Shown: piece after piece, positions 35,776 through 57,954 of the stretch
Position numbering within the stretch: the first letter of the stretch is position 1
How the letters are laid out: every line of letters begins with the position of its first letter
From: Acidobacteriota bacterium
Lineage (GTDB): Bacteria; Acidobacteriota; Vicinamibacteria; Vicinamibacterales; UBA2999
Direction of reading: 5' to 3'
Assembly: GCA_027622905.1 (NCBI GenBank)
Contig: JAQBVV010000003.1
Location: 1-60,516, forward strand
DNA: 60,516 nt
Position numbers and translations under genes: made by a program
The notes under the pieces: model-generated
Seen by the model: the letters and a program-made list of their open reading frames with translations, nothing else
Told to the model about the DNA's origin: nothing
Database searches by the model: none

Positions 35776-36881
35776 GTGAAGATCTTCTTTTCAATGCGGC
35801 ATCTGGGATCGTTCCGGATGTACGAGTCGGTCATCCGTGAACTCGCGGAACGCGGCCATGAGGTCCACCTGGCGCTTGGCCGTGGCGCCTGGCTTGCAGT
35901 CGGTCTGCGTCCCGCGCTCGAGAGCCTGCTCGCGGAGTATCCGCGCGTGACGTGGAGCCAGGTGTCGCCGTTGATGTCGCCGGTGTGGGCGGATATGGCG
36001 AGAACGATCCGCATCTGGGTGGATTACTTGCGCTATTTTCTGCCCGAATACGACGCCACACCCAAGCTCATGACGCGTCCAGGGACGATTATTTTGAGTC
36101 GCTGTTTTACTGCAGCGCTGTGGTTGGCATGAACACGAGCGCGTTTCTGGAGGCCGCGGTCGTGGATCGTCCCGTCCACACGATTCTGCTGCCAGAGTTC
36201 CATGAGAACCAGGAAGGGACGTTGCACTTTCACTACCTGCTCACGGTTGGTGGCGGAGTGCTGTTGGCCAGCCGCACCTTCGAGACGCATCATGAGCAAC
36301 TCGTGGCGTCGTTGCGGCGCTCTCCGGACCAACCAGGGACAAACCCACAGTTCGTGCGAGCATTCATCCGTCCGAACGGCCTCGACACCCGCTCGACGCC
36401 CATCTTTTGTGACGCGGTTGACGATCTCACGAGAGCACCAGCGCCGGCACCGTCCGCTACACCGTTTCGGTTCCGGTTGCTTCGTGTCGCGATGGTGCCG
36501 ACGTTTCTGATGTTGCGATGGATCTTTGGGTCTGAGGTCGTGCGCGACGATCGGCACCTCAGGGAGCGGGAACGTGGTCGCCAGCATGAGGAGCACCAGC
36601 GAAAGCACCAGGAGCGCCGTCGTTCCGAAAGGGCCAGGGCACGCGAGCGGGCACGGGTTCGCGCCGAGAGGCTGAAGGCGCGAGAGGCGGTGGCGCGGGC
36701 GAAGGAAGCGGAGCGCCAGCGCGTCGAGGCCGAGAAGGTGCGACGGAGGCGTGCGAGGGAGAGCGCGAAGGCCGTGCGCATGCGGCAGCGTGAACGAGCC
36801 GCGATGCGCACGCGGCTCAAGCAAGGCGCAAGGCGCTGGATGAGTCGTTGGCGACCCGGGCAGGAGCGGCAGGCGCCGTGA
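35776..36881 (+). pseudogene. Family A paralog with ~700-nt internal deletion and frameshift (or an assembly artefact)
   Basis: The N-terminal ~100 aa (to DYLRYF..ATPKL) is joined at about 36070-36080, in another frame, to DDYFESLFY..NTSAFLEAA..QEGTLHFHYL. The SWD and RPHP region is absent. Confidence 0.75.
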
Positions 36882-36885
36882 CCAC
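36870..36885 (+). repeat. 16-bp direct repeat CAGGCGCCGTGACCAC, second copy at 45350-45365
   Basis: Identical sequence spanning the stop/start junction after two family A genes. Confidence 0.7.
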
Positions 36886-55694: not shown

Positions 55695-56737
55695 GGATAG
55701 TGTCGCGCTGGCGGTCACGTGCCCACCGAGTCGGCGAGCAGTGGTCGACGTGGCACGAGGAGTGGGGGGTCGAGCGAGACCTCGAACGCGTGCTCGCCGG
55801 GACGCAGCCGGTGATTGTTGGTCCCTGGCTCTCCGAGGTCGGCTACGAGGTGCTCTACTGGGTGCCATTTTTGCGTTGGATCGCAGCCGCGTACCGGATT
55901 CCCGAAGAGCGCTTGATCGTGCTATCGCGTGGAGGGACTGCCAGCTGGTACCAGGGCATCGCGTCGAGGTACGTCGAGGTGTTTGACTACGCGACGGCGA
56001 GCGAGTTGTCCGACCGCGTTGCCGCCGGGACGCTCAAGCAGCGAGACGTCTCTGAGTTCGATCGCGGCCTCGTCCGGCGGGCTGTTGAGGGACTTGGTCT
56101 GGACCCCGACGTGTCGGTATTGCACCCATCGCTGATGTTTCGCTGGTTCGCGCCATTCTGGTCCGGGAAGGAGACACTGGGTTTCGCCGAGCGGCACACC
56201 AGATATACACGGGTGACACCACCTGCCGCCACACTCCCGGTTCAGCTGCCCGACGAGTACGCTGCGGTGAAGCTGTATGCGGCGCGCTCGCTACCTGATG
56301 AGCCTGCCGTACGCACGCAGCTGCGGGCCCTTGTACATGGTTTGAGCGAATGGCTGCCGGTCGTGCAGCTGGAGACCGGCCTCGGACTCGATGACCATGC
56401 CGACTACGATCTCGGCATGAACGAGCGGGTGGTCAGCCTCAGTGGACGCCTTGACGTGCGCACCAACCTCGCCGTGCAGACGCAAGTCATTTCGGGAGCG
56501 CGGCTGTTTCTTGGGACCTGCGGTGGGCTGGCTTGGCTGGCGCCGCTACTGGGAGTCGCGACAGTTCCAGTCCTGGCGGACGCGTCGTTCCTCCATGCGC
56601 ACCTGCATCTGGCGCGCCGCGTCTATGGCCGAACTGGCGCAGGGTCGTTTTCACCCGTGGATCTGCATGGGCTGACAATCGCCGGATTGACTGCCGGCCG
56701 TGGCCTGGGCGTCGGCGACGGTCAGCGGTCGTTTTGA
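55691..56737 (+). CDS. Family B GT-B-like protein
   Basis: GPWLSEVGYEVLYWVPF, HPSLMF, DDHADY and FLGTCGGLAWLAP. Confidence 0.8.
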   Translation: MRIVSRWRSRAHRVGEQWSTWHEEWGVERDLERVLAGTQPVIVGPWLSEVGYEVLYWVPFLRWIAAAYRIPEERLIVLSRGGTASWYQGIASRYVEVFDYATASELSDRVAAGTLKQRDVSEFDRGLVRRAVEGLGLDPDVSVLHPSLMFRWFAPFWSGKETLGFAERHTRYTRVTPPAATLPVQLPDEYAAVKLYAARSLPDEPAVRTQLRALVHGLSEWLPVVQLETGLGLDDHADYDLGMNERVVSLSGRLDVRTNLAVQTQVISGARLFLGTCGGLAWLAPLLGVATVPVLADASFLHAHLHLARRVYGRTGAGSFSPVDLHGLTIAGLTAGRGLGVGDGQRSF

Positions 56738-57954
56738 TGCGCATGCCGAACCTGGCACGAGCAGCGCTGAACGTCGCGGGTGTCCGCTGGCGACGGGCCG
56801 AGCGGCACTGGCGCTCCGCCGTGCAGGTGTCAGGCCGCCTTGGAAGGAAGGCACGGCGACAGGGAGAGCTCCTCTCCAGAGCACCCGTACTCGTGCGGGC
56901 GCGGATGCTACGGGGTCGTGCCGCGATCGAGCGGGCTCGAAAGCGGGTCGCGCGTTTCGATGACCATGTCGTGAGTCCGTATCGGACCGAACGTCGGGTA
57001 CATCGTGTGCTTGCCCGCGCGGCGTCGCATCGAGGCACGATCGTCGCGGGTCCGTGGACATCAGAGGTCGGATACGAGGTGCTGTACTGGATTCCTTTTC
57101 TGCATTGGGCCGTTGACTACTATGGCGTTCGGCCAGAGCGCGTCGTCGCACTGTCGCGCGGCGGCACGCAGGCCTGGTACGGCGGCATCGCGACCCGATA
57201 CGTTGAGATCTTCGATCTCATCACACCCGACGAGTTCGCTGACCAGGCATCGGCTCGCCGGGAACGCGGCGATCAGAAGCAGATGGTCCCCTCTGATTTC
57301 GACCGCGACATGGTTCGGGCCGCCACGGAGCGGCTTGGGATTCGTGACGCAGTCGTGTGGCATCCCGGCGTCATGTACCAGTTGTTCCGCGCGTTCTGGC
57401 ACGGTGACCGGTCGATCGACTTCCTGTTTCGTCACACGAACTTCCTCCGCGCTGGCGCGATGGAACTTGCGCCAGATGGTCTGGGACTGCCACCGGACTA
57501 TGCGGCGGTCAAGTTCTACACGGGTCCCGCACTGCCGGACAGCGAGCGCAATCGACAGGCGTTGTACGAGCTGGTCAGGGGGCTCGCCGCCAGCATGCCT
57601 GTGGTGATGCTCGACACCGCGTGGAGCGTGGATGAGCACAAGGACTATGCGTTTGAAGGGATTCCTGGCGTGACGACGCTGCGGCCGTCGCTTGACCCAC
57701 GGACCAACCTCGGTCTGCAGACTCGTGTCATCGCGGGTGCCAGGCGGTTTGTCGGCACGTGTGGCGGACTTGCCTGGCTGGCGCCGCTGCTTGGCGTGGA
57801 CACGCTCGCCGTCTACCAGGACGATCGGTATCTGACCGCCCATCTGTACGCGATAAGATCCCTGTGCCGGCGAATGCAGACCGGCAGATTTTCGACGTTG
57901 AATCTAGATGCGCTGCGCGGCGTCACCGCCGCGTCGGGCGCCGAGGTGTCCTGA
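56737..57954 (+). CDS. Family B GT-B-like protein with Arg-rich N-terminus
   Basis: GPWTSEVGYEVLYWIPF, HPGVMY, DEHKDY and FVGTCGGLAWLAP. TGATG overlap. Confidence 0.8.
   Translation: MRMPNLARAALNVAGVRWRRAERHWRSAVQVSGRLGRKARRQGELLSRAPVLVRARMLRGRAAIERARKRVARFDDHVVSPYRTERRVHRVLARAASHRGTIVAGPWTSEVGYEVLYWIPFLHWAVDYYGVRPERVVALSRGGTQAWYGGIATRYVEIFDLITPDEFADQASARRERGDQKQMVPSDFDRDMVRAATERLGIRDAVVWHPGVMYQLFRAFWHGDRSIDFLFRHTNFLRAGAMELAPDGLGLPPDYAAVKFYTGPALPDSERNRQALYELVRGLAASMPVVMLDTAWSVDEHKDYAFEGIPGVTTLRPSLDPRTNLGLQTRVIAGARRFVGTCGGLAWLAPLLGVDTLAVYQDDRYLTAHLYAIRSLCRRMQTGRFSTLNLDALRGVTAASGAEVS

Follow-up and report, generated by a model that had tools for sequence, protein, structure and literature searches.

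The window analysed here, a whole contig of 60,516 nucleotides (JAQBVV010000003.1) from an Acidobacteriota metagenome-assembled genome (MAG; GCA_027622905.1), encodes six paralogs of a protein family, in the following called family B, which is judged to be an undescribed glycosyltransferase (GT) family related to GT9. It is probably a distant offshoot of the GT9 lineage, lying outside the current GT9 models, and an obligate partner of a second family of the window, family A, to which it is often fused. Both are large, unnamed families of predicted GT-B enzymes that are inherited together with pathways for nonulosonic acids. Few transferases for these bacterial sugars, i.e., pseudaminic, legionaminic and related acids, are known (PMC5420450), and such enzymes are sought as tools for glycan synthesis. 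It is likely that family B comprises GT9-derived glycosyltransferases which work together with family A in the assembly of nonulosonate glycans. The family is of real interest to glycobiology while adding no new principle; the kind of enzyme itself is known.

The family-B genes of the window are given below with their class, which refers to the residues at positions 289 and 294; all start codons were inferred from reading frames alone.

36878-38134 (open reading frame from 36848), + strand: B1, class Tyr289/Tyr294
46416-49100 (open reading frame from 46209), + strand: A-B fusion gene, 894 amino acids from an MKILF start, with the A domain reaching to about 47900 and the B domain, class Tyr/Tyr, at about 47982-49100
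53378-54505 (open reading frame from 53198), + strand: B3, class Cys289/Trp294
54657-55694, + strand: B4, class Tyr/Tyr, the family-B protein that was modelled
55691-56737, + strand: B5, class Cys/Trp
56737-57954 (open reading frame from 56533), + strand: B6, class Cys/Trp

The six paralogs are 34-51% identical (34-43% to B4, and 51% between B6 and B3), a similarity that is not due to chance because the pairwise BLASTP E-values range from 4e-56 to 2e-103. Their MAFFT alignment contains 48 invariant columns, including those of GPW..E.G.E.LYW.PF, SRGG..WY, K133, HP..M, Y.A..Y, D.H and NL..Q as well as F.GT.G....AP..G and H317. An initial annotation of this DNA had listed six modules sharing a set of motifs and a four-gene array directly behind the second neuA gene. 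The modules were found at the places it gave, with all of its motifs inside the invariant columns, and the array does lie directly 3' of neuA-2 (52681-53385), the stop of which is overlapped by the likely ATG of B3 at 53378. B4 and B5 overlap by 4 bases, B5 and B6 by 1 base, and the next gene abuts B6; because starts and stops overlap or abut in this way, the B3-B6 array is regarded, as judged from the frames, as one translationally coupled unit. In B1, the first ~100 residues look like a coiled coil, and its start overlaps the stop of a decayed family-A remnant upstream. When the whole 3.43-Mb assembly was searched in six frames with the family profile, exactly six family-B places emerged, all of them in the window.

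None of the six paralogs matched a Pfam model, PF01075 of the GT9 family included, even at E-values up to 1. NCBIfam gave no match to family B beyond a trace of TIGR02193 (heptosyltransferase I) in the protein P0006 (E 0.086; 12 bits at a cut-off of 185), NF046086 (the BFO_1060 family) was not matched by family-B sequences, and a profile search of the PDB with family B returned nothing. A six-frame scan of the genome with PF01075 detected two ordinary GT9 genes elsewhere and none of the six paralogs. Exhaustive profile searching retrieved 1,701 family-B clusters (50% identity) at E ≤0.001 and 896 at ≤1e-30, and in a second library, searched by word index, at least 2,187 relatives of family B and at least 2,650 of family A were scored. 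The named family-B relatives listed are all called "hypothetical protein" except for one "uncharacterized DUF497 family protein". PF01075 occurs on ~11% of the members in four of the 30 Atlas neighbour clusters of family B. No match to B4 was obtained by tblastn in 72,556 plasmids, and the open-access papers and preprints searched held nothing on family B or on a GT9-like nonulosonate transferase. The initial annotation had been unable to assign the family to a named one, and this holds for Pfam, NCBIfam and PDB sequences alike; the survey of taxonomic range and neighbourhood that it had proposed yielded, besides the 1,701 clusters, related loci in which an order of neu genes recurs.

The relationship to GT9 emerges from structure and from profile comparison. 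A model of B4, calculated with AlphaFold from a 56-sequence alignment, attained a predicted local distance difference test (pLDDT) score of 93.0 and a predicted template modelling (pTM) score of 0.91. It features an N-terminal helix, a four-stranded Rossmann-like domain (~50-185) and a second Rossmann domain (~200-340), i.e., a predicted GT-B fold. In a wide VIA-align search of the model against 48,161 chains, the top whole-chain neighbour was 3tov (Z 14.1, root-mean-square deviation 4.1, 249 aligned residues), and further GT9 members were WaaF (1psw, Z 13.7), WaaC (2h1f, Z 12.3) and TibC (4rap, Z 11.4), so that GT9 occupies ranks 1-3 and 5. Lower scores were obtained for 2-epimerases (Z up to 10.3), the polysialyltransferase 5wc6 (Z 9.2) and Kdo transferases (Z 6.8). 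Rank 4 was taken by PDB 7wff chain a (Z 11.7 over 235 aligned residues). This subunit of the NDH-PSI supercomplex from Arabidopsis chloroplasts presumably represents a GT9-like fold that has been given a structural role. Foldseek with the same model returned GT-B enzymes in general, TibC and WaaF among them, with low TM-scores of 0.3-0.4 that are probably due to a different inter-domain angle; VIA-align was preferred because this angle probably depresses the TM-scores.

By hhalign, family B aligned with 20 Acidobacteriota GT9 proteins over 240 columns and both domains with a probability of 51.7% (E 1.5e-4), or 58.5% in global mode. The controls remained far lower, with 0.3% for family A, 1.9% for NeuC, 0.2% for GT4, 0.1% for GT2 and 0.1% for NeuA, and ten column-shuffled GT9 alignments gave 0.1-0.4%. 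The placement of family B as a probable offshoot of GT9 therefore follows from the VIA-align ranking together with the hhalign probabilities. The initial annotation had called the family "GT9-like" and had likened one of its segments to the heptosyltransferase motif FIGNDSGPxHLAAAxG; the GT9 neighbours (Z 11.4-14.1) and the contrast between 51.7% and the 0.1-1.9% of the controls agree with the former, and hhalign aligns the segment exactly there. The comparison with WaaC and WaaF that it had suggested led to a GT-B fold and to no strong full-length match with a characterised family.

The alignment further relates the presumed active site of family B to that of GT9. The segment VVVLGP-WLGEV of B4 pairs in hhalign with VVVLAPNWLGDA of the WaaF-like GT9 protein of the same genome, which matches E. 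coli WaaF at E 4.5e-29 and places its Asp on WaaF Asp13. In heptosyltransferase I (HepI), Asp13 is the strictly conserved catalytic base (bioRxiv 10.1101/2021.06.16.448588); WaaF was equated with HepI through identical motif spacing, not alignment. In family B, this column holds Glu60 (B4 numbering), which is invariant in 56 of the 56 aligned members and belongs to 20 columns invariant across these sequences. A four-residue insertion after Glu60 brings a second invariant glutamate, Glu64. As an acidic residue is kept at the position of the base, Glu instead of Asp, the chemistry may be the same as in GT9. In the C-terminal domain, N-D-S-G-x-x-H-L-A-A-A-x-G-x-P of GT9 pairs with G-T-Y-G-G-x-x-Y-L-A-P-x-x-G-x-P of family B. 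HepI Asp261 and His266 contact heptose hydroxyls, and the alpha-phosphate is bound by the two backbone amides that follow (bioRxiv 10.1101/2021.06.16.448588). Family B retains the glycines, and both sugar-contacting side chains are replaced, either by Tyr/Tyr or by Cys/Trp. That the "catalytic-looking residues differ", as had been remarked from the letters alone, is thus given precise form by the exchange of the base and of the heptose-contacting pair. An hhalign pairing of the DDH motif with HepI Lys192, which would have made DDH its replacement, was dropped, the secondary structure of the model suggesting that it is one strand-helix unit out of register.

The exchanged pair divides the family into two classes. 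Among 244 family-B sequences, taken from the window plus 77 related loci (78 in all), residues 289 and 294 are Tyr/Tyr in 127 and Cys/Trp in 92, five have other residues, 20 lack a match to the motif, and mixed Tyr/Trp or Cys/Tyr combinations did not occur. Positions 289 and 294 are the only two columns that are at least 85% conserved within each class yet different between the classes, whereas 32 other columns are common to both at 95% or more. The informative point is that the sole fixed difference would, by its alignment, fall into the donor-sugar pocket of GT9. All motif-matching copies that are fused or adjacent to family A belong to the Tyr/Tyr class (51/51), and later positions in arrays are mostly Cys/Trp. 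In the tree, copies cluster by locus position and not by genome: the B4 ortholog is the gene following neuA in most related loci, and B3 and B6 group with the copy that follows a dehydratase gene in other genomes. From this grouping by position, it follows that the paralogs are old and have been kept for separate jobs.

Family A, found by an all-against-all BLAST of the window proteins, is present in seven copies. Five are complete genes, one is the N-terminal half of the fusion gene at 46416-49100, and one is a decayed remnant; apart from the fusion, they are:

27046-28503, - strand: family A paralog, the sole minus-strand copy
32281-33996, + strand: family A paralog
34008-35756, + strand: family A paralog
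35761-36881, + strand: decayed family A remnant with N- and C-terminal pieces in different frames and ~240 residues missing between them, situated directly upstream of B1
38131-39771, + strand: family A paralog, its start overlapping the B1 stop
43607-45361, + strand: family A paralog that was modelled; start overlapping the neuA-1 stop

Family A features invariant RPHP and SWD motifs. Pfam gives it no name, with a weak GT4 N-domain signal only, and a PDB profile search produced chance matches only. The A half of the fusion partially matches NF046086 (E 1.8e-6, residues 271-355; 27 bits at a cut-off of 200), the BFO_1060 family, whose members include the Tannerella forsythia enzymes required for decorating the O-glycan with pseudaminic or legionaminic acid (PMC5420450). 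The family-A model (pLDDT 90) has a full-size GT-B fold and ~120 residues of long helices (462-579); the structural neighbours are generic GT-B proteins (NeuC Z 22.3, TarL 18.7, WaaA 18.2, TagF 15.9, Bcs3 8a0c 15.2) and do not tell the donor. Among the 150 best family-B clusters listed, 27 are 828-1429 amino acids long with a C-terminal B domain, and 25 of these align with family A over their N-terminal part. Because of this natural fusion, A and B are concluded to act together. Family A also occurs in 48 of the 52 related loci of at least 15 kb. In an evenly drawn sample of 401 Acidobacteriota genomes, family B was present in 12, and strict family A (E 1e-98 or lower) occurred in all of these 12 and in no others; a further 16 genomes possess A-like genes of the distant kind only, in several cases no more than 10-15 kb away from a neuB.

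The link to nonulosonic acids is provided by the gene neighbourhood. The window contains two neuC/neuA sets and one neuB, accompanied by a methyltransferase (MT1) and an ATP-binding cassette (ABC) transporter, likely the exporter of the glycan:

22318-25470, + strand: ABC transporter, ATPase and two ABC-2 permeases
41749-42903, + strand: neuC-like hydrolysing 2-epimerase
42915-43610, + strand: neuA-like synthetase of nonulosonates activated with cytidine monophosphate (CMP), copy 1
49235-50266, + strand: neuB
50583-51761, + strand: neuC-2
51758-52684, + strand: methyltransferase MT1
52681-53385, + strand: neuA-2 (PF02348, E 1.1e-20)

In the 52 related loci, neuB is found in 48, neuA in 40-41, neuC in 40, an MT1-type methyltransferase in 38 and a dehydratase in 39, and 46 of them hold three to five diverged family-B copies. 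The recurrent order is A, B, then further downstream neuB, neuC, MT, neuA, one to four copies of B, a dehydratase (DH), a nucleotidyltransferase (CT), a second methyltransferase (MT2), in some cases an aminotransferase (AT) and another B, an unnamed protein of ~310 amino acids termed u313, a second neuB and sometimes neuA. At the genome level, NeuB is encoded in 11 of the 12 B-positive genomes, the exception being 55% complete. In MAGs that carry the labels Nitrospinota, Deltaproteobacteria and "uncultured bacterium", small loci retain the A-B fusion or pair next to an ABC-2 transporter, fused CT-MT2, u313, and either neuB or neuA; coming from other lineages, they are more telling for the nonulosonate link than counts within one order. 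A conserved protein with a weak Capsule_synth signal (KpsC/KpsS-type, E 0.009) accompanies the A-B pair in the small loci of these lineages (L092:7746-8987, L099:11316-13196), and tblastn detected no counterpart of it in the window.

Downstream of B6, the genes DH to AT form a second sugar module (57955-60514), which elsewhere continues with u313, neuB and neuA:

57955-59091, + strand: DH, dehydratase/epimerase of the short-chain dehydrogenase/reductase (SDR) type
59001/59088-59537, + strand: CT, nucleotidyltransferase similar to rfaE domain II
59534-60196, + strand: MT2, methyltransferase
60197 onwards, + strand: AT, DegT-type aminotransferase, cut by the contig end
L092:4416-5534, L107:4516-5628 and L099:4949-6064: CT-MT2 fusions
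G000 contig C47:1024-1929 and C48:3424-4137, and L107:5650-6591: u313

The contig end at 60516 cuts the locus, and u313 and the second neuB sit on the contigs C47 and C48. The best NCBIfam match of CT is TIGR02199 (rfaE_dom_II, heptose-1-phosphate adenylyltransferase) with E 4e-15 for the window copy and 4e-15 to 3e-17 overall, versus 3e-5 and 1e-6 to 3e-5, respectively, for the TagD model (glycerol-3-phosphate cytidylyltransferase), both matches being far below the cut-offs. CT-MT2 stands beside family B in 42 of the 52 loci; the two are overlapping separate genes in the window and one fused protein of ~370 amino acids in the MAGs of other lineages. The protein u313 always lies just before the second neuB and was found in 13 of the 401 genomes, including 11 of the 12 with A and B. 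Its Atlas model is similar to the GT4 C-terminal domain, and it is a candidate for the nucleotide-sugar hydrolase of a new nonulosonate route, a role that falls to GT-B-fold enzymes in known pathways. The module DH-CT-MT2-AT-u313-neuB-neuA may be a pathway, complete in itself, for a second nonulosonic acid; on an alternative reading, it would supply a GT9-like enzyme with a donor activated with adenosine diphosphate (ADP). A pairing of the Cys/Trp class with the neuC-type pathway and of the Tyr/Tyr class with the CT/u313 pathway was considered as well; the 78 loci are too often incomplete for a clean answer, and the smallest loci, which combine Tyr/Tyr with the CT/u313 pathway, give it its only support.

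Taken together, family B would be an inverting transferase in which Glu60, located in the GPW..E.G.E loop after the first strand, replaces the catalytic Asp of GT9 and takes the proton from the acceptor hydroxyl. The nucleotide would be held by the C-terminal Rossmann domain, with the G-T-[YC]-G-G loop and the following helix lying on the phosphate and the donor sugar, while residues 289 and 294 would take the place of the heptose-binding Asp and His of HepI, set the donor sugar and define the two classes. The enzyme is proposed to act only together with family A, either as separate polypeptides or as the A-B fusion. On the cytoplasmic face, the two would assemble a polysaccharide rich in nonulosonic acids, which the ABC transporter of the locus would export, and different paralogs could supply different linkages or donors. 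The most likely donor would be the CMP-activated nonulosonic acid from the neuA to which the array is translationally coupled; judged by the neighbourhood, this assignment is nearly balanced between right and wrong, with a slight lean towards the latter. The "unusual donor" of the initial annotation is plausible. It is possible rather than probable that the proposal applies in full, i.e., that family B represents a new CMP-nonulosonate-dependent family of CAZy rank which arose from an ADP-heptose (GT9) scaffold, selects between two nonulosonic acids by means of residues 289 and 294, and forms with family A a modular polymerase, fused or in two parts, that serves Vicinamibacteria and a few further lineages to produce heteropolymers of nonulosonic acids and to vary them through gene duplication.

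Several points weigh against the mechanism, role and donor proposed. The hhalign signal towards GT9 is specific but only moderate, and the control alignments were shallow (2 to 6 sequences), which makes the comparison with them somewhat weaker. The middle part of the GT9 alignment, the DDH region, is probably misregistered, with no equivalents set for Lys192 and Glu222. The change between Tyr/Tyr and Cys/Trp occurs only twice on a FastTree tree, and the classes are defined by the very two columns, 289 and 294, that distinguish them; because of both, the pattern has to be taken as an old split with few independent events and not as repeated covariation. NeuB is encoded in 182 of the 401 genomes (a tally that includes G049, flagged as unpublished), which makes its genome-level co-occurrence with family B weak evidence, and most related loci stem from one order, so that the synteny counts are not independent. 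Family A is, moreover, the better candidate for the nonulosonate transferase owing to its partial NF046086 match, its RPHP motif and the distant A-like genes that lie near neuB without B. Because of this, family B could supply a different sugar, and the rfaE-domain-II-like nucleotidyltransferase co-inherited in 42 of the 52 loci fits an ADP-activated donor, as does the GT9 ancestry.

The last two points lead to a reading which we regard as possible but rather doubtful: family B transfers a sugar other than a nonulosonic acid, from ADP or another nucleoside diphosphate, onto an acceptor that contains the nonulosonic acid added by family A. The donor could originate from the co-inherited rfaE-II-like nucleotidyltransferase, dehydratase, aminotransferase and methyltransferase or be a housekeeping sugar activated with uridine diphosphate (UDP) or guanosine diphosphate, and the A-B pair would be a two-activity polymerase producing an alternating heteropolymer, like the bifunctional capsule polymerases. 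Such a division of labour suits the fusion and the strict co-occurrence of A and B, and it accords with the descent from a family that uses ADP-heptose and whose acceptors are themselves ulosonic acids (Kdo). CT matches TIGR02199 better than TagD, CT-MT2 adjoins B not only in the 42 loci but also in the smallest ones, and it is family A, not B, that resembles a known family of nonulosonate transferases (PMC5420450). Nevertheless, both heptose-contacting residues, Asp and His, are replaced in family B, the window showed no genes of the heptose pathway, translational coupling ties the array to neuA, and CT always stands within DH-CT-MT2-AT-u313-neuB-neuA, which is read as a complete second nonulosonic-acid route.

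Compared with a CMP-nonulosonate or other sugar transferase, a GT-B-fold protein that transfers nothing, i.e., a nucleotide-sugar hydrolase or epimerase in the manner of NeuC and PseG or a non-catalytic scaffold for family A, is improbable. UDP-N-acetylglucosamine 2-epimerases, NeuC and PseG do appear among the structural neighbours (Z 6.9-10.3), and the N-terminal domain, modelled with four strands, is small; GT9 transferases nevertheless score clearly higher (Z 12-14), an invariant acidic residue occupies the position of the base among the 20 invariant columns of 56 sequences, and the locus already encodes NeuC-type enzymes and u313. The three to five diverged copies per locus (46/52) are better suited to linkage-specific transferases. 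Slighter still is the chance that family B glycosylates proteins such as S-layer proteins, pilin or flagellin, like TibC, a structural neighbour at Z 11.4, or the GT-B domain of the flagellin transferase FlmG. The latter domain comprises 288 residues and sets the specificity for pseudaminic versus legionaminic acid (PMC7591256; bioRxiv 10.1101/2022.03.25.485807); its size is close to that of the B core. A PMT_2-type gene at the start of the window points in the same direction. Family B has, however, no tetratricopeptide repeat or other protein-binding domain, and its locus combines an ABC-2 transporter with many transferases, while no flagellar or S-layer gene was found among the window genes scanned.

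The source assembly is a 3.43-Mb MAG of 97% completeness with its close relatives in the Vicinamibacterales of the phylum Acidobacteriota; the habitat is soil or marine. One very large glycan locus with nearly all long genes on the + strand spans the window and includes GT4 and GT2 transferases, two AsnB-type amidotransferases, two radical S-adenosylmethionine (SAM) genes, the ABC-2 exporter, a formyltransferase, a polysaccharide deacetylase and several methyltransferases. The two radical-SAM genes (12937-15844, - strand), of which one includes a B12-binding domain, are encoded within the locus on the opposite strand and adjoin the amidotransferases (4843-6831 and 8783-10825), a combination which suggests unusual sugar modifications. 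A stretch of ~2.1 kb (16845-18953) shows no open reading frame of at least 200 amino acids. Two long proteins without a Pfam match (25507-27057 and 29751-31751) have a region of ~110 residues in common (31% identity, E 2e-10), and the second one looks hydrophobic; both may be membrane components of an export or ligation step.

If family B does use CMP-nonulosonates, a heptosyltransferase scaffold has been re-used for nine-carbon acidic sugars, donor choice can be approached through two residues, and a way opens to the surface chemistry of a soil phylum that is common but has been poorly cultured. If it uses another donor, it would still be an unannotated glycosyltransferase family, a model of which would name thousands of "hypothetical proteins".

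Among known systems, the GT38 polysialyltransferase, GT30 WaaA and GT107 KpsC share with family B the GT-B fold and the CMP-ulosonate donor proposed for it; family B has an invariant His-Pro pair (H160-P161). Compared with GT9, they score lower (5wc6 Z 9.2; WaaA, KpsC and KrKA Z 6.8) and lack a sequence match. In sialyltransferases of GT38, GT52 and GT80, the HP motif, which goes along with a D/E-D/E-G motif, is located in the C-terminal domain; in the family-B model, HP (160-161) is part of the N-terminal domain and DDH lies at 246-249, both invariant, which is the opposite order. The Tannerella forsythia enzymes Tanf_01245 and TFUB4_00887 (NF046086) are likewise GT-B enzymes encoded beside a CMP-nonulosonate pathway, with genetic evidence for the addition of nonulosonic acid (PMC5420450). 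The partial NF046086 match of family A connects them to the partner and not to family B, which gives none, and they stand alone without a family-B counterpart. ABC-dependent capsule polymerases with two activities, such as Bcs3 of Haemophilus influenzae type b and TagF-like enzymes (PMC10299916, PMC5974469), have no sequence relationship to family B and provide an organisational analogy only; this consists of fused or paired GT-B modules, an ABC-2 exporter and long helical extensions, as seen in family A (462-579), of which Bcs3 (8a0c) is a neighbour at Z 15.2.

GT9 itself (PF01075; WaaC/HepI, WaaF/HepII, the 3TOV protein and TibC) differs from family B in several respects. No PF01075 or TIGR heptosyltransferase model (TIGR02193/02195/02201 type) matches family B above its cut-off, Glu stands for the strictly conserved Asp and is followed by the four-residue insertion G-F-E-L, and Tyr/Tyr or Cys/Trp take the place of the heptose-contacting Asp and His. 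The invariant SRGG, HP, DDH and NL..Q motifs are specific to family B, the N-terminal domain is smaller, and the context is the synthesis of nonulosonic acids, not of the lipopolysaccharide core. Still, GT9 is the family with the best whole-chain scores (Z 11.4-14.1) for the shared GT-B fold and with a specific but moderate profile signal over both domains. The likeness extends to the N-terminal G-P-(x)-W-x-G-[DE] loop with an acidic residue at the position of the base, to the following Pro, and to the glycine-rich loop and helix of the C-terminal domain, which lead into G-x-P in both families.

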